From Candidatus Woesebacteria bacterium RIFCSPLOWO2_01_FULL_39_23 (GTDB taxonomy: Bacteria > Patescibacteriota > Microgenomatia > UBA8517), in assembly GCA_001793095.1 (NCBI GenBank), contig MGHG01000007.1:1306-65305 (forward strand): a stretch of 64,000 nucleotides of DNA. Reading direction: 5' to 3'. The position numbers and the translations under genes were made by a program. The notes under the pieces are model-generated. The model was not told the origin of the DNA. It was given only the letters and a program-made list of their open reading frames with translations, and did not search any database. Positions 2,617 to 38,628 of this stretch are shown here, piece after piece. Each line of letters starts with the position of its first letter. The stretch's first letter is position 1.

Positions 2617-3033
2617 TTAATACCCCCAATCTTTTTGCCACTCCCGCATCATTTCAATCTCATCAGTTTGGGCGGCAATAATATCATCGGCCATTTGTTT
2701 GATCTCATCGTGCAAGGCAGCTGTTTTAGCTTGTTGGGCCATATCTATTGCCCCTTGATGGTGAACAATCATTGCTTCCATAAAGGCTTTATCAAAATCA
2801 TCACCCGTTTTGCCTTCCATAGACTCCATCATTTCCTCCATACTTGATGCTGTTCCCATCATCATTGATCCAACCGTATCTTCTTCTTGCTCAATCATAT
2901 TAAATCTTGCATTCATTCCCATCATCCGCATCATACCTGTGTTGTTGGCATTAACAGCATTTGAAGCAAAGAGCATTGTCAAAACAATCCCTGATAATAA
3001 ACCTATGATTCCATAAAGATATTCTTTTTGCAA
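2617..3033 (-). CDS. DUF305-family Met/His-rich metal-binding protein (CopM-like), membrane-anchored
   Basis: N-terminal TM, many Met runs (MMRMMGM, SMMMGTASSMEEMMESMEG) and the DUF305 helix motifs AFMEAMIVHHQGAIDMA and DEIEMMREW. Confidence 0.75.
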   Translation of the reverse strand: MQKEYLYGIIGLLSGIVLTMLFASNAVNANNTGMMRMMGMNARFNMIEQEEDTVGSMMMGTASSMEEMMESMEGKTGDDFDKAFMEAMIVHHQGAIDMAQQAKTAALHDEIKQMADDIIAAQTDEIEMMREWQKDWGY

Positions 3034-3069
3034 AAAATTTCACCTCCTTTCAAAAAACTTTGTTTAATT

Positions 3070-3591
3070 TTACTTTCCTTCAATGAATTGCACTAAGGCA
3101 TTTTTGTCAAGGTTATCAAATGTCTGAATTTTTCCCATCCTTGTTATCGCAATCTTTTTACTCATGTTTGAAAAAGGTGCAACATATACAAACTCGGAAT
3201 ATTTGTTTGCAATTTCTGCAAGTTTTTCTTTAAGACCGGGTTCGCATTCAAAGTCCTCGCAGTTGTAATTGATAATCACTCCAGGAGGTCCTTTTCCATC
3301 CGAATGCTCCAGCATGTGCTTTTGGACGGATAGGGACATTGGTTCATCCATAACGTGCGATGAGGGATTTTGTTCTATATGACCGGCCATGTCAGTAGGA
3401 GGTAAAATTTCTCTGTTTGTTGACCAATAATAAATGCCACCAATAAGGAGTACTGCAATAATTAAATCAATACTCCAATTACGAATTCTACCTATTAAAC
3501 TACTTTTTGATACATCTTGCGCTTTCAATGCTCTTATTTTTTTCTTGCGTTCTCTTTTTGGTAGTTCATTCCATTCTTCTGGATATTCCAT
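3070..3591 (-). CDS. Membrane-anchored extracytoplasmic protein with a His/Met-rich stretch and an NCEDFEC Cys pair (DUF3105-like)
   Basis: Lys-rich N-terminus, one TM, then HIEQNPSSHVMDEPM...KHMLEH and NYNCEDFECEP. The family assignment is tentative. Confidence 0.55.
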   Translation of the reverse strand: MEYPEEWNELPKRERKKKIRALKAQDVSKSSLIGRIRNWSIDLIIAVLLIGGIYYWSTNREILPPTDMAGHIEQNPSSHVMDEPMSLSVQKHMLEHSDGKGPPGVIINYNCEDFECEPGLKEKLAEIANKYSEFVYVAPFSNMSKKIAITRMGKIQTFDNLDKNALVQFIEGK

Positions 3592-3594
3592 ACT

Positions 3595-4116
3595 TCACCT
3601 CCTTCTACTTATTTTTATATTACATATTCCTAGAACCCTTTTAGACGTGTAGTAAAGCGTTAAAAGCATAATGATAATTGAAAGTAAGAGTATCATTTGT
3701 CTGTATTTCAGCAAAAGCAACACCCCTCCCAAACCTAAAAATCCAAAAATAGATCCCACACAGGAAGCGCAAGACGCAGTGGGACCAAAAATTGAACCCA
3801 ACATTCCAGACAAAGTACTAAAACTACTACGTCCAACTGTTGCTGTACTTAGAGAATTTTTTAACTCATTTCTAATAACAAAAATATTCATTGTTAAAGA
3901 GAGGGAGGTAAGGCTAGAGAGTAAGACAAGTAAAAACCAATCTTTCAGAGTAAAAATGGAAATTTGAAAAGAAAAAGTATTACCTGGAATTTGCCTGACA
4001 GGAATATAAATAAAAAACCAAAGAGCTAGAATTGACAAAGCAAAGAAGGTGATCAAAAAAATTTTCTCTTTAAAAACATTTTTCACCGCAAGAATAACCA
4101 ATTGAATATAATGCAT
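3595..4116 (-). CDS. Polytopic membrane protein with an intramembrane CASC (CxxC) motif
   Basis: Four or five hydrophobic segments and GPTASCASCVGSIFGFLGLGG. It sits 6 nt downstream of the DsbA-like gene. It is not recognisably DsbB or VKOR. Confidence 0.55.
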   Translation of the reverse strand: MHYIQLVILAVKNVFKEKIFLITFFALSILALWFFIYIPVRQIPGNTFSFQISIFTLKDWFLLVLLSSLTSLSLTMNIFVIRNELKNSLSTATVGRSSFSTLSGMLGSIFGPTASCASCVGSIFGFLGLGGVLLLLKYRQMILLLSIIIMLLTLYYTSKRVLGICNIKISRRR

Positions 4117-4122
4117 GTTTTA

Positions 4123-4905
4123 TCATGATTCTTTGAGCATGTTGTCTATCTCCGTTTTAAAGTTTTCGAATGGTAATGCTCCGGGAATTAATTTAGTTTT
4201 GCCTGTTTTTGTATCAAGCAGTATATTTCCGGGTGTTCCTGTTACACCGGCTTTTGCACCACTTTGGAAATCGCTTTCTACATGAGCTGCCGTCTTGCCA
4301 CTATCAAGACACGTCTTGAACGCACTTTGATTAAGGCCGACCTCACCTGCCAATTTGGGTAAATCATCCAGGTTCAAACCGTTATTGGAAGGGGTAACCT
4401 CAAAGATTTTATCGGTCAATTTCCAGAAACCATCATTACCCGCCAGTTCATATGCACACTCGGTAGCCTCAGCCTCTTTATCTGCTTTTTGATGGATTTG
4501 GTCTAATGGAAAATGCCTATAAACCCAAGCAACCTGACCTTTATATTCATCAACTATTTGTTTAGCAGTTGGATGAAATCTCTTGCAGAATGGGCATTCC
4601 AAGTCTGAATATTCAATTAGAAGCATCCTTGCATTCTTATCGCCTCTTACATGATCGTCGTTTCTCAACTTATCAACTTGGTCAGCATTACCGAAGGAAG
4701 GCTGAACTCCTCCTGCAGCTGGTTGTCCTCCTTGAGCACCTCCGGCGGCTCCAGCTTGTGTTCCGGCGATACGTGTGGTTCCACCACCTTCCAAGTTTTT
4801 GACTTTCTGCCAAAGCATTCCTACTGCAAAAGCAAGTCCAATTGACGCAACAAGAAGAATTGGAACTAATTTTTCAAGAAGATTACTCTTAGACTTTAAT
4901 ATCAT
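4123..4905 (-). CDS. DsbA-like thiol:disulfide oxidoreductase (thioredoxin fold, CPFC active site), membrane-anchored
   Basis: LIEYSDLECPFCKRFHP, with an N-terminal TM and a Gly/Ala/Gln-rich linker. The track start at 4932 is TTG. The ATG at 4905 (MILKSKSN...) is the more likely start. Confidence 0.8.
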   Translation of the reverse strand: MILKSKSNLLEKLVPILLVASIGLAFAVGMLWQKVKNLEGGGTTRIAGTQAGAAGGAQGGQPAAGGVQPSFGNADQVDKLRNDDHVRGDKNARMLLIEYSDLECPFCKRFHPTAKQIVDEYKGQVAWVYRHFPLDQIHQKADKEAEATECAYELAGNDGFWKLTDKIFEVTPSNNGLNLDDLPKLAGEVGLNQSAFKTCLDSGKTAAHVESDFQSGAKAGVTGTPGNILLDTKTGKTKLIPGALPFENFKTEIDNMLKES

Positions 4906-4912
4906 AGATATA

Positions 4913-4925
4913 CTACGAAGTGTAG
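4913..4925 (-). promoter_or_regulatory. Candidate BlaI/CopY-type operator copy (CTACGAAGTGTAG) just upstream of the dsbA-like start
   Basis: Same 13-mer (1 mismatch) as at 6250..6262. In both places TTCGTAGTATAT precedes the ATG on the coding strand. Confidence 0.45.
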
Positions 4926-4960
4926 TAGACAATAGTAAAGGTTGTCAATAAGTAAAAGGG

Positions 4961-5911
4961 TTAGTCAACGTTATTATTAAAAGAGGCGAATGTTGACTGA
5001 AATGCGGGGGTAATGTAAGAGCTTTGGTTAATATTATTTGTTGGGCAGTGTGTAGAACAGAGGTTATCCTCACAATTTGAAAGGTCTGAATTACCCATCG
5101 CCTGAATAGTATGAGTATCTCCTGGAAACTTGAAAAGGAAAAGACCAGCTAGAATGATTACCACAAAAACTAAAAAGTTAATCCTTTTGATTTTGTAGTC
5201 GGTTCTTCTTGAAAAGTTTGGGTAAATTTTGAAACGATTTTGAGAACTTACCGTTTCAAGTGCTAAATTCAGATGTCTTGTGGTCTTTTGTTGATTAGAA
5301 ACAAAAAGATCTGCTTCCTTCTCTAATACAGTTCTCATTTTCCTTGTTAAATCTCTTAAAACAGGCAGCATTAGTAGTGATGAAGATAAAATTTCCCCGA
5401 CAATAAGTAATAGTGGATGTCGATTTTTTAAATGGTAATATTCATGAAGTGTTACTGCTTCAAGCTGATTCTGATTTAGTTTTTCTATTAAGCTGGTCGA
5501 AATAACTATTTTTGGTGAAAACCAATCTATTGTAAAAGCATAAACATCTACCTCTTCTACAATAATAATTAAATCTTTTCGGATACCGTTTCTTTCTAGA
5601 ATAAATTTAAGTTTTTGAGGTAAAGAATAAATTTGTTTTTGCAAAAGTACCTCTAATTTTCTTTTTGTTTTAATACATGAAAGTAAAGTTTTTAGAAATA
5701 GTCCTAATGTAATCATTAAAACAATAGCTGTGAGAATAAATCCTACATAATGGGCTCCGGTTGAGAAAAAGCTCGAAGCAATAACTTTGCAAGTCTCTCG
5801 GAAATGTTCGAAGGTTAGACCCGAGTATCTTTTAAAGAGAGTAAAAAGAGAAACAACTGAGAAAGTAAAAACTAACAAAATGCTTAGGAAATAACTTATT
5901 TCTTTTTTCAT
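4961..5911 (-). CDS. BlaR1/MecR1-type M56 zinc metallopeptidase with a short Cys-rich extracytoplasmic tail instead of a penicillin-binding sensor domain
   Basis: Three N-terminal TMs, HEXXH (TLHEYYHLKNRHP), a later TM, then a roughly 50-aa tail containing NCEDNLCSTHCP. Confidence 0.8.
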   Translation of the reverse strand: MKKEISYFLSILLVFTFSVVSLFTLFKRYSGLTFEHFRETCKVIASSFFSTGAHYVGFILTAIVLMITLGLFLKTLLSCIKTKRKLEVLLQKQIYSLPQKLKFILERNGIRKDLIIIVEEVDVYAFTIDWFSPKIVISTSLIEKLNQNQLEAVTLHEYYHLKNRHPLLLIVGEILSSSLLMLPVLRDLTRKMRTVLEKEADLFVSNQQKTTRHLNLALETVSSQNRFKIYPNFSRRTDYKIKRINFLVFVVIILAGLFLFKFPGDTHTIQAMGNSDLSNCEDNLCSTHCPTNNINQSSYITPAFQSTFASFNNNVD

Positions 5912-5919
5912 ACAATCTC

Positions 5920-6246
5920 TTACTTGTGTCGTTTAAGTTCATCTGTAAATGCAGTTACCGCTTCGTGTCCGTATTGGTCAACTAAAGAGTTAACAATTTT
6001 TTTAACTATCCCTTTTGCGGTTTGCTCTTTGGTTTTTTTAGGTGAATATACATATGCCTTACCTTCCATCTTTCTTGCTAAAAAGCCTTTCTCGGTCAAA
6101 CGTGTCATTATTGTCATTACTGTTGTATAAGCAATTTTGCGTTCCTTTTGAAGACATTGATGGATATCCGAAACTGAAGCATTTTTCTCTTTCCACAGAC
6201 AATCCATTACTTCTTGCTCAAGCGGTCCTAAGTTATAGCTAGTCAT
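5920..6246 (-). CDS. BlaI/MecI/CopY-family winged-helix transcriptional repressor
   Basis: 108 aa. YTTVMTIMTRLTEKGFLARKMEGKAYVYSP winged helix, 8 nt upstream of the M56 gene. There is no C-terminal CxC metal motif. Confidence 0.85.
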   Translation of the reverse strand: MTSYNLGPLEQEVMDCLWKEKNASVSDIHQCLQKERKIAYTTVMTIMTRLTEKGFLARKMEGKAYVYSPKKTKEQTAKGIVKKIVNSLVDQYGHEAVTAFTDELKRHK

Positions 6247-6249
6247 ATA

Positions 6250-6262
6250 CTACGAATTGTAG
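6250..6262 (-). promoter_or_regulatory. Candidate BlaI/CopY-type operator copy (CTACGAATTGTAG), 4 nt upstream of the blaI-like ATG
   Basis: TAC-N-GTA dyad ends reminiscent of cop/bla boxes (TACAnnTGTA). It is duplicated at 4913. Confidence 0.45.
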
Positions 6263-6290
6263 GAGATTTAGAAGAAACTATCAATACCAT

Positions 6291-6884
6291 TCAGTAACTA
6301 ATCAGTCGTATTAAAAAAGGTACTATTCTAATAGTCGGCAACTTATAGTTATAGGCAACTTTGTAGTAGATACTTGTGTATTTGTTTACTTGATCGATTA
6401 GTTTTGTCTCAAATTCCTTATCATTCTCAATTATACTTAAGGAATTTCCAGCTACTCTTTCGATCGCTGGATAAAGCAACTGCTTTTGATAATCTTCCGC
6501 CGCAGTAGAATATTGGTCTAGTTTTTCACCTGAAAGTTTCGACAGCTCACTTTCGATTTCCAGATAAATTTTTATGGATGATGGAAGTCTTCTATATGGA
6601 GAGTCTGGTTCTATATTAAACAGGACAAGATCTCTAGCTTGTTTATATTCAAAAACCAAAACATTTGACAACTTTTTGATTACCTTTACCGATTTCTTGC
6701 CTTTGTATTTTTGGTTGTAAGTGGCATCTCCCTGATAGGAATAAATCAAACCGATAATACAGATAAGCTTACCTTTATTTTTCTTAAATCCGAAAAGGTC
6801 GAAAAACTTCTTGAAACTTATTCCCAACTTAAAGCGAGGGTTGAACCGATGTCCTACGTTGCAGCACAAAAGAAGCTCAAACAA
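6291..6884 (-). CDS. Hypothetical protein
   Basis: 197-aa ORF with no recognisable motifs. It overlaps small opposite-strand ORFs, so its start is uncertain. Confidence 0.35.
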   Translation of the reverse strand: MFELLLCCNVGHRFNPRFKLGISFKKFFDLFGFKKNKGKLICIIGLIYSYQGDATYNQKYKGKKSVKVIKKLSNVLVFEYKQARDLVLFNIEPDSPYRRLPSSIKIYLEIESELSKLSGEKLDQYSTAAEDYQKQLLYPAIERVAGNSLSIIENDKEFETKLIDQVNKYTSIYYKVAYNYKLPTIRIVPFLIRLISY

Positions 6885-7195: not shown

Positions 7196-8887
7196 ATGGA
7201 AAACAAACTAATATACGTCCAGTATTCAAGAAAATCATCAGAGTCTAGAGAAAAACAGGCATTATCTATTGATGAACAAAAAGAAGAGTGTGTAAAACTT
7301 GAAAAATTATTGGACTTGAACATCCCCTACAAATTAGAAGAATCCCGTTCCGCATACAAACCAGATAATAGACCTGAATTTGATAAGCTGATTTCATTAA
7401 TAGAAGCTGGAAAAGTAAATGCCATACTAACCTGGAAGCCTGATAGGCTTTGCCGTAATCCAAAAGAAGGTGGTTATTTACTCCAATTACTACAAGGTGG
7501 TGTCTTAAAAGAGATTCGGTGTGCTGATGGTGAAACTTATACTCAAGATTCAGACCATTTAATACTCCAAATTCATTTTGGCATGGCAAACCAATACTCA
7601 AGAAATTTAAGCAAGAATGTAAAACGCGGGAACAGCTATAAGTTCTTAAATAACAAACAATGGCTTGGTCCCGCTAAACCAGGGTACTTGAATGCTCAAG
7701 AAGGTAAAGATAAGACAATAGTTGTCGATGAAGAACGTTATCCGATAATTGAAAAGGCTATTAGGTTGATTCTCTCTGGAACTCATACTCCGATGGAAGC
7801 TCTAAATGTGTTGAATAAAAAATTTGGATATAGGAGTCGGAAAACAAAATGCCAAGGTGGTAAACCAATGCATAAAAGTGGTTGGTATCGCTATCTGAGT
7901 GACCCGTATCTTTATGGTTTAATGAAGAGGAAAGAAGGAGAAGTTATGGGTGATTTCAAACCGATGTTATCTAAACCAGAATTTGACAGGTTGCAAATTA
8001 GGTTGGGTAGAAGAGGCACCAGAATTTCCAAGCACGAGATACCCTATCGAGATGTGCTCAAGTGTGGAAGCTGCGGTGGCACTGTATGTGGTGACGATAA
8101 ATGGCAAGTATATTGTCCTGCCTGTAAGGAGAAGTTTCATAAGGGGAAGAATACAACCGAATGTAAATACTGCCACACTCCAATTGAACGGATGAAAAAT
8201 CCTACAATCCTTCATTACGTTTATCTGTTCTGTACAAAAAATAAAAACCCGAATTGTACTCAAAAGATAATCTCGGTTAAAGATTTTGAGAAACTTGTTG
8301 ATGATGAGCTCCTAAAGTTTACAATTCCAGATTCTTTTCGTGATTGGGCTATCAAACACCTGAATAATTGCAACACGAAAGAGGTGGGAGATAGAGAAAT
8401 TGTCAGAACAAACCTAAAAACTGCTTATGATGACTGTGTAAAAAAGCTAGATAGCTTACTTAGTCTCAAAATCAGCCCACAGAATATCGATGGTTCGGTA
8501 ATATCTGATGAAGAGTACAACACCAAACGAAAAACGCTCCTTGATGAAAAGACCAGTCTACTGGAACAGATAAATGGAGTAGATAAGAGGCAGAATGATT
8601 GGATGGAATTATCCGAAAGAACCTTTGATTTTGCAGTTTACGCACGGCATTGGTTGGAACATGGAGACGCTAAACAAAAAAGCTCAATTCTTGCAGCTCT
8701 CGGTTCGAACATAAGGATAATGGACAAGAAACTGCTGATAACACGGCATAAACAGTATTTCTTAATAGAAAAAGGGGTAGGAGAAATTAAACAATTAGCA
8801 AGACAATTCGAACCTGGTAAAACACCCGTATTATCGGAGCATTTACTCTCTTTTGAGCCTATTCGTTCTGCTTGGCTGGGAGACTAG
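7196..8887 (+). mobile_element. Large serine recombinase (resolvase/invertase catalytic domain, recombinase domain, zinc ribbon)
   Basis: N-terminal YVQYSRKSSESREKQALSIDEQ with catalytic Ser, then the TWKPDRLCRN region, then Cys clusters (CGSCGG...C..C, C.YC...C). 563 aa. Confidence 0.9.
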
Positions 8888-8947
8888 GATTCGAACCTAG
8901 ATATACAGATCCAGAATCTGTAGTCCTACCGTTAGACGATCTCCCAA
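8876..8947 (-). tRNA. tRNA-Gln (anticodon CUG)
   Basis: Cloverleaf read on the minus strand: TGGGAGA / D-arm GTCT..GGAC / anticodon stem ACAGA-TTCTGGA-TCTGT / T-arm CTAGG-TTCGAAT-CCTAG / TCTCCCA. Its 3' end overlaps the recombinase stop codon. Confidence 0.85.
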
Positions 8948-9017
8948 TACAAAACTCTGATTAAATTCGATCTTTTAGGAATCTACGCCCGAAGCCTGTT
9001 TTAAAATATTTTTCTCT
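8929..9017. repeat. Direct repeat copy 1: the last 18 codons of the GIY-YIG gene, an intergenic spacer and the first 19 nt of tRNA-Gln
   Basis: About 80% identical to 9283..9371. Seen by eye alignment. Confidence 0.7.
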
Positions 9018-9197
9018 TTTGATTGCTTTATTCTTATCTAAACAAGCTTCATAATAAACCAATTTGATTGGCAACCGAAATTTAGTTGAACTAACTAGTC
9101 CTAATTTGTGTTTATTTACTCTTTTCTCAAGATCATTACTCCATCCAACATAGCGTTTACCATCTCTTTTACTTAACAGCACATAAGTATAATACAT
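8961..9197 (-). CDS. GIY-YIG nuclease-family small protein (YhbQ/UPF0213-like)
   Basis: MYYTYVLLSKRDGKRYVGWSNDLEKRVNKH...LVYYE...KREKYFK, the classic GIY-YIG core. 78 aa. Confidence 0.8.
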   Translation of the reverse strand: MYYTYVLLSKRDGKRYVGWSNDLEKRVNKHKLGLVSSTKFRLPIKLVYYEACLDKNKAIKREKYFKTGFGRRFLKDRI

Positions 9198-9282: not shown

Positions 9283-9371
9283 CCATTAGACGATCTCCCA
9301 ATACAAAACTCTGGCTAAATTCGATTTTTCAAAAATCTTCTTCCAAAACCCGTCTTAAAATATTTTTCTCT
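9283..9371. repeat. Direct repeat copy 2: a GIY-YIG 3' remnant (encodes REKYFKTGFGRRFLKNRI*), spacer and a 19-nt tRNA-Gln 5' fragment
   Basis: The minus-strand translation of the remnant keeps the same peptide as copy 1 with mostly synonymous changes (one D to N). The tRNA fragment TTGGGAGATCGTCTAATGG diverges after nt 19. Confidence 0.7.
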
Positions 9372-26345: not shown

Positions 26346-27356
26346 TCATTGAACTACGTTAAATGAGCCAGTATACATGCCCATTGAACAGGAAAAAGCC
26401 AGCCGGCCAGGTTTAGTCGGAGTAAATTCAATTTCTGTAACTCCAGTATCGGGGAGTATCTTTGAGATATTTAATGACGGAATAGTAAACGCCCGTGCAC
26501 AGCTGAAAACGTTATCGGTAATGAGTTTTAATTTAACTGGAACCCCGGCTTTTAAGGTACTGACATCTGGGGTATAACCTCTACCTGTGACATTAATAGT
26601 TGCTTGTTGGATACCCTGGGTGACTCCCGCGGATCTTGCAACCGGAACGAGCTTATCATTTCCACTGATAATAATCCAATAATTTCTGAGAGTATGAGGT
26701 GAACCGAAAAGACCCATTGCATTACTGAGTGCAAGTACACCGAATACAAAAATTACAATGGAGGAGATGTATGCGAAGGCTTTTTTCCGAAGTAAGCCCA
26801 GTGCAGCTACGCCAAGCGTAAAAAATACCGGGCTGGTTCCGAGGGTAAAAGCAAACATTGTTGCTCCTGCGTAGAGCGGATTTCCTGTTCCGAGTGCCAC
26901 GAGCATCATAGCTTGGGTGACGCCGCAGGGCATTAGAACTGTTAGTGCGCCCAGGATTGCCGGTGCAAAAAGAGACGTTTTCTTACTTTGGTTTCTGGCT
27001 AATCTTAATACAAACTTAGGTGGTTGAATGACGAAGTATCTGAAAAATGGATGCAAGCCCAGAAGTCTACCCGCTGTTCCGATTAGGAAGATAGCAATAA
27101 CAAGCTGCAATACAGCCAGAAACTTAGGGGAAGGAGTTAAGATGGAGCCTACTATTCCCAAAAGCACCCCAAGGATAGTGTAAGCCAAGATTTTACACCC
27201 TAAAAACATTGCAACAAACTTCCAGTTGCCACCTTTCACCTCTTTATTTTCTTTTTGTAGTGTTAATGTTGAGGTAAGAAGGCCACCCTGTACTGCAAGG
27301 CAGGAGATTCCTCCGGTTGTCAAGCCTGTAATAAAGGCCAGCCAGACGTTGTTCAT
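26346..27356 (-). CDS. Polytopic membrane permease-like protein with a C-terminal cupredoxin-like (Cupredoxin_1-type) domain
   Basis: Gly-rich N-terminal TM (FITGLTTGGISCLAVQGG) and 6-8 TMs. The C-terminus VTEIEFTPTKPGRLAFSCSMGMYTGSFNVVQ matches the F-x-C-x-M-x-M-Y-x-G tail of the 29976 protein. Confidence 0.6.
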   Translation of the reverse strand: MNNVWLAFITGLTTGGISCLAVQGGLLTSTLTLQKENKEVKGGNWKFVAMFLGCKILAYTILGVLLGIVGSILTPSPKFLAVLQLVIAIFLIGTAGRLLGLHPFFRYFVIQPPKFVLRLARNQSKKTSLFAPAILGALTVLMPCGVTQAMMLVALGTGNPLYAGATMFAFTLGTSPVFFTLGVAALGLLRKKAFAYISSIVIFVFGVLALSNAMGLFGSPHTLRNYWIIISGNDKLVPVARSAGVTQGIQQATINVTGRGYTPDVSTLKAGVPVKLKLITDNVFSCARAFTIPSLNISKILPDTGVTEIEFTPTKPGRLAFSCSMGMYTGSFNVVQ

Positions 27357-27449: not shown

Positions 27450-27719
27450 ATGGATGAATCTGCAAAAATCTCAGCTGCAAAACGACTGGCAATTATCAGG
27501 GGTCATCTCAATAAAGTAATAGACATGGTATCGGATGATGCTTATTGCCCTGATGTTATTCACCAATCGCAGGCGATTCAGGCAGCGTTAAAAAATGTTG
27601 ACGAAATAATCCTTCATGGCCATCTACATCATTGTGTACTCAAAGATATACACGAGAAGGGATCGAAAAAAGAGAAACTAATTAACGAAATACTTGACGT
27701 ATTCAGCAAACAAACATGA
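27450..27719 (+). CDS. csoR: CsoR-family Cu(I)-sensing transcriptional repressor
   Basis: YCPDV...HGHLHHC: the Cys, His(+25) and Cys(+29) spacing matches the CsoR Cu(I) triad. 89 aa, four-helix-bundle type. Confidence 0.85.
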   Translation: MDESAKISAAKRLAIIRGHLNKVIDMVSDDAYCPDVIHQSQAIQAALKNVDEIILHGHLHHCVLKDIHEKGSKKEKLINEILDVFSKQT

Positions 27720-28222
27720 GAGGCGAGTCAAAAATTCTTGTCGCAGCTATAATTTTTTCGGTGCTTTTAATTATTGGGTTTGTTGCACTTAGTGGAAAAT
27801 CATCTTCGGAAGAAATTAAACCTATGGGAGATGTAAGTGGTATTTCCGTCGAACCCTCTAATTACAATTTGGGTGATGTTCCAATAAAAGGAGGAACCGT
27901 TACGAAGGAGTATAAAATTAAAAATACTACAAATAATACAATTAAACTTAAAAAATTGGCAACGTCGTGTATGTGTACAAAAGCTAAGGTAAAAATTGGA
28001 GATAAGGAAACTAGGTTGTTCGGTATGGAGGGTATGGGTGATAAAAATCCTTCTGTTAACTTGGAAGTTGCTCCAAATGAAGAAATGTTGGTTACCGCGA
28101 TTTTCGATCCTGCTGCTCACGGACCTCAAGGAGTAGGACCTTTTGATAGAAGCGTGTTCTTAACATTTTCTGATCCATCTGGGGTAAGGGAGCTCAAATT
28201 TAGCGGGAAAGTAGTCAGCTAA
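27716..28222 (+). CDS. Membrane-anchored beta-sandwich protein with a CxC motif (DUF1573-like)
   Basis: N-terminal TM. VPIKGGTVTKEYKIKNTTNNTIKLKKLATSCMCTKA resembles the DUF1573 S-C-x-C-T core. Tentative. Confidence 0.5.
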   Translation: MRGESKILVAAIIFSVLLIIGFVALSGKSSSEEIKPMGDVSGISVEPSNYNLGDVPIKGGTVTKEYKIKNTTNNTIKLKKLATSCMCTKAKVKIGDKETRLFGMEGMGDKNPSVNLEVAPNEEMLVTAIFDPAAHGPQGVGPFDRSVFLTFSDPSGVRELKFSGKVVS

Positions 28223-28746
28223 TGAATAAGATAGTTTTTATAACGTTTATAATAATTATAAGTATTGTATTATTTGGATTTCCTAGGGAAATCCAGGCGC
28301 ACTGTCCGCTTTGCGTGGCCGGCGCTGGAGTTGGATTAACGCTATCAAGACTGTTGGGAATTGACGATAGCATTACCGGAGTTTGGTTGGGGGCTTTTTT
28401 GGGGGCGATGGCGTTTTGGACACAACGATTACTTGCCTCAAAAAATAAAAACTTTTCTTCTACTTTTTTTGGGATTTTTATTTACTTGGGAATTTTTGCA
28501 GCGACTATATGGTCTTTTTATAAATATAATCTGATTCTAAAACACGGAGATATTTTTGGATTAGATAAATTGACTTTCGGAATGGTAATAGGCGGATCCT
28601 TATTTTATATAGTTGATATCGTCAATGGCATTATAATCATGAGACACGGTAGGTCTTTTTTCCCATATCAAAGGTTAGTTACAGGACTTGGAAGTATGTT
28701 TTTATTAAGTGGAGCAGTCTTTATCTTAATTAACTACTATATATGA
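28222..28746 (+). CDS. Polytopic membrane protein with an HCPLC (CxxC) motif
   Basis: 174 aa. Signal/TM, then AHCPLCVAGAGVG at a membrane boundary, then three more TMs. Confidence 0.5.
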   Translation: MNKIVFITFIIIISIVLFGFPREIQAHCPLCVAGAGVGLTLSRLLGIDDSITGVWLGAFLGAMAFWTQRLLASKNKNFSSTFFGIFIYLGIFAATIWSFYKYNLILKHGDIFGLDKLTFGMVIGGSLFYIVDIVNGIIIMRHGRSFFPYQRLVTGLGSMFLLSGAVFILINYYI

Positions 28747-29948
28747 AAAAACTTAAGAAGAAACAAAAATTACTGTTGAGTAAATTTCTAACCTCTTCTT
28801 TTTTGATATTGTTTGGTTTTATTTTGAGTTTTACGTTTTTCAAAACCAATGTCCAAACTTTAAATTTCCTTCCGTCTATTTCAAATAGTGTGGCAGCAAT
28901 TAACTCTAAAGATTTAATTAAGAAATTAGAGAATAAGAATTTTACGCTAATAAATGTTCATACGCCGTATGAGGGTGAGATTGAAAAAACGGATATCTTT
29001 ATAAATTACGATGAAATTTTGGCTAGTAAGGATAAACTTCCCCAAGATAAGAATGCCGAAATAGTACTCTACTGTAAAACTGGAAGAATGAGCACAGAGG
29101 CTGCAGCAACTCTCCTGAATTTAGGTTATACAGATGTTAAACACCTGAACGGTGGAATGGACGCGTGGAAGAAAGAGGGCGGGAGCCTAATTGATTTGTC
29201 GAAACTTCCAGAACAAGTACTTCCACAGGAGGGTTTTACACTTCCTGTTTCTTGGGGTAGTTTAGGTCCGAGATTAATCCAACTTGGTGTAATCGATCAG
29301 GCAAAGTTTGAAAAGGTTGTTAAGATGGATAATACACAAAAGGAAATTTTGACCAAAGGATCGGATTCGCTAATTACAATTAATACTCAGAATAGTCAGT
29401 TTGTTGTTGATATGCTTTGGGCTGTTGGGCTCGGACAAAAGAGTCTTGTTTATGACGAAGGGCCGATGGGAAAAGAGTATAAAAATAAAGCCGGTAACTT
29501 TGCCTCAACCGGAGGGTGGAGCTTAGCGAAAGGCAGCGCGATGGCTCATTATAATAAACACGACCTGATCTCACTAACAGCTGAGCAGCATAAAAGAGTG
29601 ATGGATATCGCAGGACATGTTTATAGACCGTGTTGCGGTAATCACACGGCATTCCCCGATTGCAACCATGGTATGGCAGCCTTGGCAGCAATTGAAATGA
29701 TGGTATCCTTAAATATGAGCGATGAAAGTATTTATAAGAGCGTACTCGAACTGAATTCATTTTGGTTTGGGAGTACGTATATGACTACTGCAACTTATTT
29801 TGCCAGACAGGGTATATCCTGGGACAAGGTGGATGCTAAAGAGGTGTTAGGTGCCAAATATTCTTCAGGTCAGGGAGCAGCTGAAATAGCTAAGAAAGTT
29901 AATCCCCTGCCTTATGAAAGTAAATCAGGTGGTGGTTGCGGTGCTTAA
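28743..29948 (+). CDS. Membrane-anchored rhodanese (sulfurtransferase) fused to an unrecognised Cys/His-rich C-terminal domain
   Basis: Rhodanese with active-site loop LYCKTGRMS and ...LNGGMDAW. The C-domain carries PCCGNHTAFPDCNHGM and a terminal GGGCGA. Confidence 0.7.
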   Translation: MKKLKKKQKLLLSKFLTSSFLILFGFILSFTFFKTNVQTLNFLPSISNSVAAINSKDLIKKLENKNFTLINVHTPYEGEIEKTDIFINYDEILASKDKLPQDKNAEIVLYCKTGRMSTEAAATLLNLGYTDVKHLNGGMDAWKKEGGSLIDLSKLPEQVLPQEGFTLPVSWGSLGPRLIQLGVIDQAKFEKVVKMDNTQKEILTKGSDSLITINTQNSQFVVDMLWAVGLGQKSLVYDEGPMGKEYKNKAGNFASTGGWSLAKGSAMAHYNKHDLISLTAEQHKRVMDIAGHVYRPCCGNHTAFPDCNHGMAALAAIEMMVSLNMSDESIYKSVLELNSFWFGSTYMTTATYFARQGISWDKVDAKEVLGAKYSSGQGAAEIAKKVNPLPYESKSGGGCGA

Positions 29949-29975
29949 TTAAGTAAATTAAGTATAAAATCGTAT

Positions 29976-30332
29976 ATGGATAAACTAGTTGTTACTATTG
30001 GTGGATTGTCGGTTTTAAGTTTTATTTATTGGTTTTTCTTTGGAAAATCCAAGGATGAAATTGTTGAGGTCAAAGATAATATTGATGTTATTGTTGATGG
30101 GGGTTATAAGCCAGCCGCAATAAAAATAAAAAAAGGAAAAACAGCGACACTAAGAATAAAAAGACTGGATACAAACAGTTGTTTAGAAGAGATAATAATA
30201 CCTGACTTCAAAGTTAAAGAATATTTACCGCTAAATAAAGAGGTTGAGATTAAGATTAGCCCTAATAAAAACGGAGAGTTTAATTTCCACTGTGGAATGA
30301 ATATGTATCATGGAAAGATCATTGTCGAATAA
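29976..30332 (+). CDS. Small membrane-anchored cupredoxin-like (Cupredoxin_1/EfeO-like) protein
   Basis: TM, then a beta-rich domain ending [18 protein letters not shown]. It overlaps the copA start by 23 nt. Confidence 0.65.
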
Positions 30333-32625
30333 TAATCAAGCTAGTCAAAAATTGTCATTTCCAATAATCGGGATGCACTGCGCGTCATGCGCCAGACTTA
30401 TAGAGAGGCAGCTCGTGCGAACACCCGGTGTTTTAAGCGCTGCAGTCAATTATGGGAGTGAAACGGCTTCGGTTGAATACACATCCGACGTAAAGGAAGA
30501 AGATTTAGCTAAAGCTGTAGAAGGAGCGGGTTATAGAGCGATATTAGACCAAAGGACAAAGGACAGAGGACAAAGGACATCGGATGAAATCAAAGAGGAG
30601 GCGAAGAAGAAAGAGATTAAGGAGTTAAAGCTGAAAGTTATAGTCTCTTCAATACTTTCGGTCCTTATATTCGCCGGAAGTTTTCCGGAATGGATTACTT
30701 TTGTACCCAAAATATTGAGTAATAATATTGTTCTATTTATACTCGCTACCCCCGTTCAGTTTTGGGCAGGATGGCAATTCTATTTAGCCACGAGATCAGG
30801 CTTGAAAAATAGAACTGCAAGTATGGATACGTTAATTGCAATCGGGACTAGTGCAGCCTATGGCTATTCCGTTTGGTCAATGATCTTTGGAGGAGACAAA
30901 TATTTTGACACTGCGGTAATAATTATTACCTTAATACTTCTTGGAAGATATCTTGAAGCCAGAGCAAAACTGCATACAAGCGATGCCATAAGGAAACTTT
31001 TAGCCCTTCAGGCGAAAACCGCACGCGTCATACGGGGGTCGACTGAAGTTGATATTCCTATCGAAGAAGTTAAAGTCGGAGATATAATCCGTGTAAGACC
31101 GGGTGAAAAAATTCCGGTTGACGGTGTTATAACGGAAGGAGTGAGCTCAATTGACGAATCTATGGTAACGGGTGAATCTATCCCTGTTGATAAGACTGTA
31201 GGCAATTCCGTTATCGGTGCAACAATCAATAAATCCGGAACCTTTTTATTTAAAGCTACAAAAATCGGCTCGGATACTATGCTCGCCAGAGTAGTAAAAA
31301 TGGTTGCCGAAGCGCAAAGTTCAAAAGCCCCTATTCAAAGACTCGCTGATGTCGTTTCGTCGTATTTCGTCCCGATAGTTTTAATTCTGGCAGTTCTGAC
31401 ATTTGTTATATGGTTTGACTTCAGTCCCATATCTTCCGAAGCATTCAAGCACGCATTTACGAATATGGTAGCGGTTCTTATCATCGCCTGTCCTTGTGCG
31501 CTCGGATTGGCAACGCCCACAGCAATAATGGTAGGTACAGGGAAAGGCGCTGAGCACGGAATACTGATAAAGGATGCAGAAAGTCTGGAAATCGCAAATA
31601 AAATAAAAACTATCGTTTTTGACAAGACGGGGACATTAACGGAAGGAAAACCAACCGTTACGGACGTTATTTCAAGTCAAAAGTTAAATGTCAAAAGTCA
31701 AAAGTTGTTACAGCTTGCTGCATCTCTTGAGCAAGGTTCAGAGCATTCGTTGGCGGAAACAATAATTAAAAAAACTCATAGCTTAAAACTTAAAACTCAA
31801 AAAGTAACTAATTTCAAAGCAATACACGGGATGGGAATCGAAGGGGAAATTGAAGGGAAAAAGTATATTTTTGGGAATAGAGCATTGATGGACAAAGAGA
31901 AGATAAATTATAAAAATCAGGAGTCAAGAATTATGAATTTAGAAGAAGAAGGTAAAACTGTAATGTTATTAGCCCTTCGACAAGCTCAGGGTAAACTATT
32001 AGGAATCATCGCCGTTGCTGACACTTTGAAGGCAAGTGCAAAAGATGCTGTAGCGATGTTACAAAAGAGAAAAATAGATGTTTGGATGGTGACTGGGGAT
32101 AATGAGCGGACGGCAAAAGCCATTGCTCGTGAAGCGGGTATTAACAATGTTTTAGCCGGAGTACTTCCTAATGAGAAGGCAAGTAAAGTAAATGAATTAC
32201 GAATAAAGAATAATGTATTAAGCAATTGGGATAATTCAAAATTCATTAAACATAATACTGAACCCGTCATCGCGTTCGTTGGTGACGGTATTAATGACGC
32301 ACCTGCACTTGCAGCGGCGGATGTGGGAATTGCAATGGGCAGCGGGACAGATATTGCAATGGAGTCGGCTGGAATTACTCTCTTGAACCGTGATTTAAAT
32401 AGTGTGGTTTCGGCAATTGAGTTAAGCAAAAAAACTCTCAATGTGATAAAACAAAATCTTTTTTGGGCCTTCGGATACAATATTGTTTTAATACCCGTTG
32501 CAATGGGGGTTTTATACCCCTTTTTCGGTTGGCTTCTTAACCCTGCAATAGCAGCATTTGCTATGGCTGCCAGCTCCATTTCCGTCGTCGGGAATTCCCT
32601 TCGGCTGAAAAGTGTTAGACTTTGA
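30310..32625 (+). CDS. copA: Copper-translocating P1B-type ATPase
   Basis: N-terminal [16 protein letters not shown] motif [19 protein letters not shown], and the GDGINDAP hinge. 771 aa. Confidence 0.95.
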
Positions 32626-36810: not shown

Positions 36811-38628
36811 GTGATTAAAATTGCATCTTTACGAAAGTTGATAACCAATATAACGGGGAACCTTGTTCGAATGCTAGGAATTGCCTGGCAGATGGATAGA
36901 TTTATAACATTCGGATACTTTGCCTCGTCTGGTGTTGGTGCACTATTCCCGATATTAGCGAGCTATTTATTTAAAATATTTTTGGATGAGCTAATTTCCA
37001 GCAAGGGTATTGCTGTAAGCATTCCTTTAATTTTAGTAACTCTTTTAGCTTCAAGATATTTTGTAAATATTGTCTGGGATTTTGTCAGTTGGGGACTGAA
37101 AAACATATATTTTGATTTTCTTTTTCGCTCCAAAATCCAAAATGCACTTAATTTTCTTTTCTATAAAAAAGTAAGTAAACTTGACATTGCTCACTTAGAG
37201 GATACCAAGACACAGGATTTAATTGCTAAAGCTTCAGATACTTTTACCTGGCGTTCTCCTGATTTATTGAGGCATTTTTCGTACATGTTTAATAATTTCG
37301 TTTCCTATGTTTCATCTTTTATTATATTAATTCCGTTCGGATTGGTAACTCCGTTTTTTGTAACCTTAGTCACACTTCCAAGATTTTTTTTGCGTGCTAA
37401 ATACGGAAGACTTCAATGGTCAATTTATGGAGCAGGGACGCCCGATGTGAGAAAATTGTGGTATTTCCGAAGGATTCTTTCAGATAAAACTTCTGTTATA
37501 GAGTCGAGAATATTCCAATCACGCCGTGTTCTTTTAAGGAGATTCAAAAAGATTCAAAACCATCTATTTGAAATGAATAAGAAGCCCGTAGTTGAATTTC
37601 TTCGGATTCTTGCATTTCCTCAGTTGTTAGAGGGCGGAGTAATATTTTTCTTTGCTTACCTGAAACTACCCGATGTTTTAAGCGGGAAAATATCAATAGG
37701 TGATTTTACCTTTTTTATTAGTTTGCTGGACAGAATTACGACGAGTGCAGGGGATATGATTTTAAATTTCGGGGATTTGTATGACGATAATTTATATGTT
37801 AACCATTATTTCGAGGTATTGAATCTACCTAAACTTGTTAAAAAACCAAAAAATCCGAAAGAAATAGATATTGATAAACCAATAAGTTTTGAATTTAGAA
37901 ATGTTTCTTTTAAATATCCAGGAACGGAAAACTTTGTTCTAAAGGATATTAATTTCTCCATCGAACCGAAAGATAATATTGCGATTGTCGGAGCAAATGG
38001 TGCAGGAAAAACTACAATTGTAAAACTGTTGTGTCGGTTTTATGACGTAACATCCGGAGAAATTTTAGTGAATGGCGTAAATATTAAGGACTTGGATTTG
38101 GATAACTGGTATAGGTGTATAGGTACACTTTTTCAGGAGTTTATGCATTATGATTTTACGGTCAGGGAGAATATCATGCTCGGAAATCCAAAGGTAAAAA
38201 ATGAAGACAAGATGAGATTGGCTGCCAATCAGAGTGGTGTGTCGGAATTTGTGGAAGCATTGCCGAATAAATATAACCAACTTCTTGGGAGGCAGTTCGA
38301 AGGGGGAGTCGAGCTTTCGCAAGGTCAATGGCAGAAATTAGCCATAGCACGGGCTTTTTATGAAGGAGCACAAATATTGATATTGGATGAGCCTACCTCA
38401 GCAATTGACGCCGAATCAGAATATGAGATTTTTCAGAATCTTAATAAACACTATAAAGATAAAACACTTTTTTTGATTTCTCATAGATTTTCAACAGTCA
38501 GAAATGCCAATAAGATTATCGTATTAAAAGAAGGCAGGATCTTGGAGACTGGGAGTCACGATGAACTTTTACGGGTAGGGGGTCTTTATGCTAGGATGTT
38601 TAGGAAGCAAGCATTGGGCTACCAATGA
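36811..38628 (+). CDS. ABC exporter, fused permease and ATPase (MsbA/MdlB-like)
   Basis: Six N-terminal TMs, Walker A GANGAGKTT, signature LSQGQWQKLAIARAF and Walker B ILILDE. Confidence 0.9.
   Translation: MIKIASLRKLITNITGNLVRMLGIAWQMDRFITFGYFASSGVGALFPILASYLFKIFLDELISSKGIAVSIPLILVTLLASRYFVNIVWDFVSWGLKNIYFDFLFRSKIQNALNFLFYKKVSKLDIAHLEDTKTQDLIAKASDTFTWRSPDLLRHFSYMFNNFVSYVSSFIILIPFGLVTPFFVTLVTLPRFFLRAKYGRLQWSIYGAGTPDVRKLWYFRRILSDKTSVIESRIFQSRRVLLRRFKKIQNHLFEMNKKPVVEFLRILAFPQLLEGGVIFFFAYLKLPDVLSGKISIGDFTFFISLLDRITTSAGDMILNFGDLYDDNLYVNHYFEVLNLPKLVKKPKNPKEIDIDKPISFEFRNVSFKYPGTENFVLKDINFSIEPKDNIAIVGANGAGKTTIVKLLCRFYDVTSGEILVNGVNIKDLDLDNWYRCIGTLFQEFMHYDFTVRENIMLGNPKVKNEDKMRLAANQSGVSEFVEALPNKYNQLLGRQFEGGVELSQGQWQKLAIARAFYEGAQILILDEPTSAIDAESEYEIFQNLNKHYKDKTLFLISHRFSTVRNANKIIVLKEGRILETGSHDELLRVGGLYARMFRKQALGYQ

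Follow-up and report, generated by a model that had tools for sequence, protein, structure and literature searches.

A BlaI/BlaR1-type repressor-protease pair with a putative cysteine-based sensor module and a DsbA-linked regulon in Candidate Phyla Radiation bacteria

The window analysed here is a stretch of 64,000 nt from contig MGHG01000007.1 of Candidatus Woesebacteria bacterium RIFCSPLOWO2_01_FULL_39_23. On its minus strand, the open reading frame (ORF) of a BlaI/CopY-family repressor (5920-6246) is followed after 8 nt by that of a membrane protease (4961-5911), which is annotated as a 'hypothetical protein' in this genome (100% identity). An earlier note on this DNA had called the two a BlaI/BlaR1-type pair. 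This assignment is borne out by an ORF check of the window, which finds both genes where that note had placed them, by a Penicillinase_R match of the repressor (E 1.5e-27), and by BlaR1 as the top profile and fold match of the protease. The pair may form a proteolytic signalling system of the BlaI/BlaR1 type in which a thiol-based extracytoplasmic module takes the place of the beta-lactam-binding domain. The relay itself and its DsbA regulon have high confidence; the full statement, with a metal as the trigger, is tentative and falls somewhat short of an even chance.

The protease has the BlaR1/MecR1 trait of a HEXXH motif and a downstream Glu ligand in an integral-membrane Zn-protease. In Pfam it scores 35.3 bits against M48 (gathering cut-off 20.3) and 23.7 bits against M56 (PF05569; gathering cut-off 31), and most of its orthologues have a precomputed PF05569 match. 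A family profile of 30 orthologues matches residues 108-319 of S. aureus BlaR1 (E 6e-10), and this alignment takes in the part of BlaR1 that surrounds its autocleavage site. AlphaFold models of the protease have a pLDDT of 74 when built with 30 sequences and of 85 when built with 90 sequences. BlaR1 is their top match in the PDB, with best Foldseek values of E 2.6e-7 and a TM-score of 0.60, the latter to chain 8exr_A, which comprises only the transmembrane (TM) and protease parts. With the NCBIfam models for BlaR1/MecR1, the protease reaches 39.7 bits for NF000326 (cut-off 1200) and 17.2 bits for NF033108 (cut-off 400). A BlaI-family repressor gene lies directly upstream of the protease gene in every locus, and approximately 96% of M56 family members adjoin such a gene (PMC13492132).

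The repressor scores 96.6 bits against Penicillinase_R (PF03965; cut-off 22.6). Its best NCBIfam match is CopY_TcrY (TIGR02698), at 61.3 bits or half of the cut-off of 121.95, and its nearest solved relatives are M. tuberculosis Rv1846c (2g9w, the best), MecI and BlaI. In alignment with BlaI, residue F100 (5947-5949) falls on the P1' Phe of the site that is cut between N101 and F102, and this Phe is invariant. The retention of the scissile-site Phe fits a proteolytic relay. Repressors of the clade to which the window belongs are short (108 vs 126 aa) and are without the last C-terminal helix; a cut between A99 and F100 would take off nine residues only.

The protease stops 53 residues past its last TM helix (residues 245-263), and Pfam finds no transpeptidase-like domain (PF00905) in it. 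Close homologues (n = 40, 43-100% identity) are 310-332 aa long when complete, and any shorter entry is a fragment. When 1.84 billion cluster representatives were searched exhaustively with the profile, 4579 relatives emerged, 784 of them at E<=1e-10 and 82 at E<=1e-30. A profile search of a 5.8-billion set, narrowed by word filtering, yielded little more. The best 150 of the 4579 are almost all 270-361 aa long, the few shorter ones being fragments, and none of these 150 is long enough to contain a penicillin-binding domain. The penicillin-binding sensor domain, which the earlier note had described as replaced by a short tail, is thus truly missing and not truncated. No bla or mec gene lies beside the pair; at all loci, the operator-controlled neighbour is a DsbA-like gene. 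The HEXXH core that had been read from the sequence stands, and the BlaR1 topology does not, since the protease has two N-terminal TM helices and BlaR1 and PetP have three.

Conserved cysteines are found in both extracytoplasmic segments of the protease. In the alignment of 30 orthologues (41-100% identity), C280, C285 and C289 of the tail are invariant, as are C41 and H36 of the TM1-TM2 loop. C41 adds to the tail triad that had been noticed before. In a clade of approximately 30% identity, the three tail cysteines are kept with other spacing, for example CSEGTGCQTTGC. Among 145 diverse full-length representatives, C41 is retained in 99%, C280 in 91%, and C285 and C289 in 77% each. C285 and C289 are gained or lost jointly, and the tail Cys count is sharply bimodal: 28 representatives have a single tail Cys, 107 have three and only 3 have two. 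A tail with one or three cysteines gives, together with C41, two or four outward-facing cysteines. C41 and C280 are the only strongly conserved extracytoplasmic residues, and their surroundings evolve fast (mean column identity 27%). The loop (residues 27-54) contains no Met, and the tail is predicted to be disordered. There is no Lys or Arg in the 53-residue tail, versus 14 and 13 in the two cytoplasmic segments. In 25 short-N variants, in which TM1 is missing, the conserved Cys lies about 10 residues from the N-terminus, a position consistent with an outward orientation like that of the tail. The Cys-rich tail described previously therefore holds for its 53 residues and its conserved Cys triad; its His is not conserved across the family.

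The likely operator is a cop-box-like palindrome, ACTACA-N1-3-TGTAGT, which was discovered by comparing the upstream regions of repressor genes and which immediately precedes the repressor start codon. The pattern CTACA-N2-3-YGTAG recurs from locus to locus in a position that overlaps the -10 box. The form of the palindrome before the repressor gene of relatives is CTACAATNTGTAG. The distant clade carries it as the canonical cop box CTACACTTGTAG (TACAnnTGTA), for which a consensus, TACANNTGTA (TACAnnTGTA), has been published (PMC7253601). A search of the window for the canonical cop box gives a single irrelevant match at 38013; in the true site, the spacer is 3 nt long and one base is degenerate. 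The exact sequence CTACANNNNGTAG occurs only twice in the window, overlapping the -10 boxes of the predicted promoters before the repressor gene and before dsbA. In an independent repeat search, these two sites, P1 and P2, appear as a 22-nt repeat at 6245-6266 and 4908-4929 with 91% identity.

The 19 loci compared are taken from public genomes and metagenomes. All of them have the palindrome in the protease-dsbA spacer, and 15 have it before the repressor gene. Additional copies are scarce in the 13-17 kb available per locus. They precede a gene for a CC/CCC-rich exported protein in loci L001 and L008, a DUF3105 gene in L010 and a SurA_N-like gene in L023. In the 19 loci, genes for copper ATPases, multicopper oxidases and CsoR have no copy in front of them. 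The P1 transcript is expected to be leaderless or nearly so, because the ATG is only 9 nt beyond the -10 box. The genes at P1 and P2 start near-leaderless without a Shine-Dalgarno sequence, unlike the DUF305 and HMBD genes. Before the latter two genes, a 24-nt repeat (2587-2610 and 3040-3063, 88% identity) contains a strong minus-strand Shine-Dalgarno sequence.

Wherever a non-redundant locus reaches far enough (18 of 18), the protease gene has a DsbA-like gene after it, with one gene between them in L008. This linkage spans members with less than 30% identity, as well as L023, which has one tail Cys, and L024, which has the short N-terminus. The start of dsbA in the window is the ATG at 4905 and not the TTG at 4932. 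The gene next after the DsbA-like gene encodes CcdA/DsbD_TM in six loci and a CxxC membrane protein in the others, and a DUF3105 gene usually comes next after the membrane-partner gene. The downstream DsbA, CxxC membrane protein, DUF305 and HMBD genes named in the earlier note are all present in the window, and the DUF305/CopM gene is probably in the same transcript as the dsbA operon, which is on the same strand. The pair had also been taken to head a metal/thiol operon. It does lead a series of thiol and metal genes, but a separate operator-controlled promoter precedes dsbA, which makes two transcription units, and the constant partner is DsbA rather than the metal genes. CopC, multicopper oxidase, CsoR, P1B-ATPase, DUF305 and YHS genes surround many, but not all, of the modules. 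Carriers with named source genomes are Woesebacteria, Roizmanbacteria, Collierbacteria, Pacebacteria, Microgenomatus and Saccharibacteria. The features of the window are listed in Table 1.

Table 1. Features of the repressor-protease locus and the genes downstream of it (positions in the window).
Feature	Position	Strand	Basis or detail
BlaI/MecI/CopY-family winged-helix repressor, 108 aa, no C-terminal CxC	5920..6246	-	Pfam, NCBIfam, PDB relatives
M48/M56 (BlaR1-like) sensor protease, 316 aa	4961..5911	-	Pfam, profile search, fold match
HEYYH, residues 156-160 of the protease	5432-5446	-	protease motif
EKEAD, residues 197-201 of the protease	5309-5323	-	protease motif
Loop cysteine C41 (TM1-TM2 loop)	5789-5791	-	conserved Cys
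Extracytoplasmic C-terminal tail, residues 264-316, 0 Lys/Arg	4964..5122	-	Cys triad CEDNLCSTHC at 5045-5074
P1 promoter/operator of the repressor-protease operon	6250..6284	-	-35 TTGATA, 17-nt spacer, -10 TACAAT
P1 palindrome CTACAATTCGTAG overlapping -10	6250-6262	-	upstream-region comparison
P2 promoter/operator of the dsbA operon	4913..4948	-	-35 TTGACA, 18-nt spacer, -10 TACACT
P2 palindrome CTACACTTCGTAG overlapping -10	4913-4925	-	exact pattern search of the window
Membrane-anchored DsbA-like thioredoxin-fold protein, CPFC active site	4123..4905	-	Pfam/NCBIfam
Polytopic membrane protein, 173 aa, invariant CxxC (CASC) and C-terminal Cys, no Pfam family	3595..4116	-	
DUF3105-like protein, 173 aa, with NYNCEDFEC	3070..3591	-	Pfam
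DUF305/CopM-family protein	2617..3033	-	Pfam/NCBIfam
Stand-alone HMBD mini-protein, 40 aa	2458..2580	-	PF19335, E 2.5e-17
GDCCVxC-domain Cys-rich protein, 66 aa	2239..2439	-	NCBIfam

Several known systems share parts of this arrangement. PetR/PetP of Synechocystis sp. PCC 6803 (slr0240/slr0241) also consists of a BlaI/CopY-family regulator co-transcribed with a sensor-less M48/M56 protease, and PetR, like the window repressor, has no CopY copper site. PetP and copper are both needed for the degradation of PetR, and a short extracytoplasmic loop has been proposed to supply the copper ligands. By its published features, PetP spans the membrane four times, with two Met in the TM2-TM3 loop as the proposed ligands. 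The window protease, in contrast, has two N-terminal TM helices, no loop Met, and a loop Cys combined with one or three tail Cys. The PetR site is GACN5GTC and the window site is ACTACA-N-TGTAGT. The PetRP regulon comprises petE/petJ/slr0601-2 in cyanobacteria, whereas that of the window pair comprises a dsbA-like gene with thiol and metal genes in the Candidate Phyla Radiation (CPR); petE and petJ genes are absent beside the window pair.

BlaI/BlaR1 and MecI/MecR1 of S. aureus resemble the window system in the repressor fold, the operon order, the HEXXH...ExxxD Zn-protease between TM helices, and a TACA/TGTA operator core that overlaps the promoter. BlaR1 and MecR1 have a penicillin-binding domain of approximately 250 aa and a beta-lactamase or PBP2a gene, neither of which is found in the window system, and they have one more N-terminal TM helix than the window protease. 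CopY/CopR of the Firmicutes share the Penicillinase_R winged helix, the cop box (with a 3-nt spacer in the window) and the metal context. CopY has a CxCxxxxCxC metal site and the window repressor has none; the window repressor is paired with a protease and CopY systems are not.

CenIR (C. difficile), PvmSR (P. aeruginosa) and BlaIR (M. tuberculosis/M. abscessus) each combine an M56 protein that has a short, largely disordered C-terminus with a BlaI-like repressor. Their regulons are different (cell-wall hydrolase, virulence and energy metabolism), and the papers on them report no conserved Cys module or DsbA linkage. In a 2026 survey, approximately 6% of M56 proteins have a transpeptidase domain, and M56 with a short undefined C-terminus is the commonest form. 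The likeness to ScsB/ScsC would concern the regulated genes only, which in both cases place a DsbA-like protein beside a membrane partner in a copper-resistance context. In ScsB/ScsC this partner is a DsbD/CcdA-type transporter and in the window it is the CxxC protein; the regulator is not likened. ScsC binds Cu(I) with sub-picomolar affinity, is reduced by a DsbD-like partner and confers copper tolerance.

By homology to BlaI/BlaR1, the repressor would bind the palindrome and the protease would cleave the repressor. The proposed sensor module consists of the loop C41 and one or three tail cysteines (C280, and C285/C289). A change at these cysteines would activate the cytoplasmic Zn-protease, which would cut the repressor near A99 and F100 and derepress both promoters. 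P1 very probably drives the repressor-protease operon and so provides autoregulation. P2 very probably drives the genes for the DsbA-like oxidoreductase, its membrane partner and the DUF3105 protein, after which the DUF305/CopM, HMBD and GDCCVxC genes follow in the window.

The change sensed may be the binding of a soft metal, in the first place Cu(I) and perhaps Hg or Ag, that bridges the loop thiol and the tail thiol(s). Such a bridge would clamp the tail on the loop, in a manner similar to the engagement of the BlaR1 extracellular loop by the acylated sensor domain. The system would then be the extracytoplasmic counterpart of the cytoplasmic CsoR-ATPase copper unit elsewhere in the window. 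A metal is favoured because of the metal-island context, the metal-binder-like members of the regulon and the kinship to the cop box and CopY, and because of the PetRP precedent and the ScsB/ScsC paradigm, in which the DsbA-like protein is reduced and binds Cu(I). On this evidence a metal trigger is plausible, with a probability not far below one half.

A number of observations weigh against a metal. Tails with two cysteines, which with C41 would give a three-thiolate site of the Cu(I)/Hg(II) type, are nearly absent (3 of the 145 representatives), and the even-number Cys pattern fits disulfides better than a metal site. H288 of the tail is clade-specific, no His or Met ligand is conserved family-wide, and the Cys spacing is variable (x4-7 and x3-5). 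The tail and loop have a pLDDT below 55 even with the 90-sequence alignment, and this low model confidence leaves the closeness of the cysteines unproven. The invariant partner is DsbA and there is no invariant copper exporter. In the window, no operator copy accompanies the copper efflux genes, which come with a CsoR of their own, and L024 has no copper genes nearby. The host organism is uncultured.

Many of these points favour a different input to the same relay, in which the protease would respond to disulfide status. A C41-C280 disulfide would staple the tail to the loop and C285-C289 would form a local pair. Disulfides that are unmade, broken or scrambled would switch the protease and lead to more DsbA-like enzyme and partner. 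The causes would be reductive stress, oxidoreductase overload or copper-catalysed mis-oxidation, and copper would act only indirectly. The even count of outward-facing cysteines is typical of disulfide-bonded exported proteins, and the joint gain and loss of C285/C289 is as expected for a pair. The variable spacing, the lack of conserved His or Met and the separate CsoR sensor for copper efflux point the same way. The DsbA-like gene is the sole invariant neighbour (18/18), including in members with less than 30% identity and in the locus free of copper genes, and it has the operator at 19/19 loci. The loop and tail cysteines could then be substrates of the DsbA-like enzyme that the system controls, and this feedback would tune the oxidoreductase supply; such a circuit is conceivable but doubtful.

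Against sensing of disulfide status, the CcdA-type reductant transporter after the DsbA-like gene in six loci suggests a reduced, ScsC-like enzyme. The regulon includes metal-binder-like members (the CC/CCC-rich protein, DUF305/CopM and HMBD), and the literature search found no precedent for a disulfide sensor of the BlaR type. The metal trigger and the reading of disulfide status are nearly balanced, with the metal slightly more likely; taken by itself, the response to disulfides is somewhat improbable.

The cysteines may also be structural only, for example as a stabilising disulfide, with a signal of another kind, such as stress on the envelope or membrane or a misfolded exported protein. 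Most BlaR-like proteins are without a defined sensor domain, tests have not revealed what CenR and PvmS respond to, and the tail is predicted to be disordered, all of which would suit this explanation. It is nonetheless unlikely: Cys conservation of 99% and 91% within fast-evolving, unstructured segments is hard to explain by stability, and the regulon is one of thiol chemistry. A classical CopY-type mechanism, in which copper binding by the repressor itself would release it from the DNA and the M56 protein would be accessory or unrelated, is very improbable. CopY_TcrY is indeed the best NCBIfam match and the operator is cop-box-like, but the score is only half of the family cut-off, and the protease gene is in an operon with the repressor gene at every locus. 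The C-terminus of the repressor (...AFTDELKRHK) has neither CxC nor any Cys, its two cysteines elsewhere are not conserved, and the L001 orthologue is entirely Cys-free. The earlier argument that metal sensing of the CopY style by the repressor is ruled out is upheld on these grounds. Decay of a BlaR1 into a pseudogene after loss of the penicillin-binding domain has nothing but the short length of the protease in its favour and is rejected as next to impossible, given the lengths kept in complete close homologues and in almost all of the best 150 representatives, the invariant catalytic motifs, the conserved operator 36 nt past the gene, and the lack of a transpeptidase remnant.

The separate copper unit of the window (27450-32625, plus strand) contains CsoR, DUF1573, a 174-aa protein, a 401-aa rhodanese, a cupredoxin and an HMA P1B-ATPase. 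A divergent DsbD_2-cupredoxin fusion lies beside it at 26346-27356 (minus strand). In L001 and L005, the CsoR-DUF1573-x-rhodanese cassette directly adjoins the BlaI module. HMBD is usually the N-terminus of P1B-ATPases, and the 40-aa stand-alone ORF is easily overlooked by ORF callers.

The CxxC membrane proteins of approximately 175 aa are always directly after the DsbA-like gene, in the slot otherwise taken by CcdA/DsbD_TM. The family also occurs at 9802-10341 of L003 and 7855-8409 of L025, and its CxxC is within a Gly-rich segment. It has two distantly related subtypes (hhalign E 9e-5). The window member has no Pfam match even at E<=10, and its profile comparison with CcdA/DsbD_TM is negative (probability 0.2%). 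From its sequence and position, the family is a candidate for a new redox partner of DsbA-like proteins.

The NYNCEDFEC motif of the DUF3105-like protein resembles the NCEDNLC of the sensor tail. Most canonical DUF3105 orthologues are without those cysteines, and the likeness may be chance; mimicry of the sensor tail was considered and is left unexplained, as the motif is missing in most orthologues. A His-rich motif of the DUF3105 family (PPTSGxH ... HxLEHGG) suggests a metal site, and a literature search on DUF3105 gave nothing relevant. The CC/CCC-rich exported protein is about 190-260 aa long (QGACCGAM..., GGPCCCRCWRW) and is encoded at 10544-11134 of L001 and approximately 7980-8560 of L008, and also in L011 and L020. 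It is missing from the window and has only a weak DUF5714 match. It appears to belong to the same regulon because it has its own operator and a near-leaderless start in L001 and L008.

Just upstream of the operon, a 197-aa ORF (6291-6884, minus strand) with a TTG start has no Pfam match. Its homologues are found in the metal islands of L003 (47% identity) and L010 (57%). A large serine recombinase gene (7196-8887, plus strand) overlaps the 3' end of a tRNA-Gln gene (8873-8946, minus strand) by 15 nt, from which it follows that the thiol/metal operon is probably on an element integrated at tRNA-Gln. Past a GIY-YIG gene (8961-9197), 18 nt from the 5' part of the tRNA-Gln gene recur at 9283-9300. 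The other boundary of the element was not found in the window and may lie before its start. The CPR-type module is also present in the metagenome-assembled genome records L008, L009, L012, L013, L015, L018, L020 and L021. Among these records, the titles 'uncultured Gammaproteobacteria', 'Pseudomonadales' and 'Methanosarcinales' look like automatic mis-assignments.

The earlier note had considered a metal- or redox-sensing BlaR1 variant not to be a described system. That claim was too strong: PetR/PetP is a published copper-dependent, sensor-less pair, and sensor-less forms dominate M56 in the survey. In the literature searched, no paper ties BlaIR-like systems to DsbA or to a cysteine tail (one seeming BlaI match in a paper on Patescibacteria is the author name Blainey), and the loop-plus-tail Cys module, the one-or-three pattern, the dual operator and the invariant DsbA regulon in CPR were not found.

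In the recent papers on CenIR, PvmSR and PetRP, the activation of sensor-less BlaR-like proteases is unexplained or guessed. The subfamily described here is legible, with an input of two or four cysteines, a defined operator and a small, conserved, DsbA-centred regulon, and the question of activation thus becomes approachable by a few point mutants. The subfamily also draws attention to the CxxC membrane protein and DUF3105 as uncharacterised partner families. A relay of this sort may be how the streamlined, uncultured bacteria of the CPR control their extracytoplasmic defence against thiol and copper stress. If disulfide feedback proved to be the input, the pair would constitute a direct feedback circuit for the thiol chemistry of exported proteins that is widespread in CPR, and it would be the first defined non-antibiotic input mechanism among sensor-less BlaR-like proteases.

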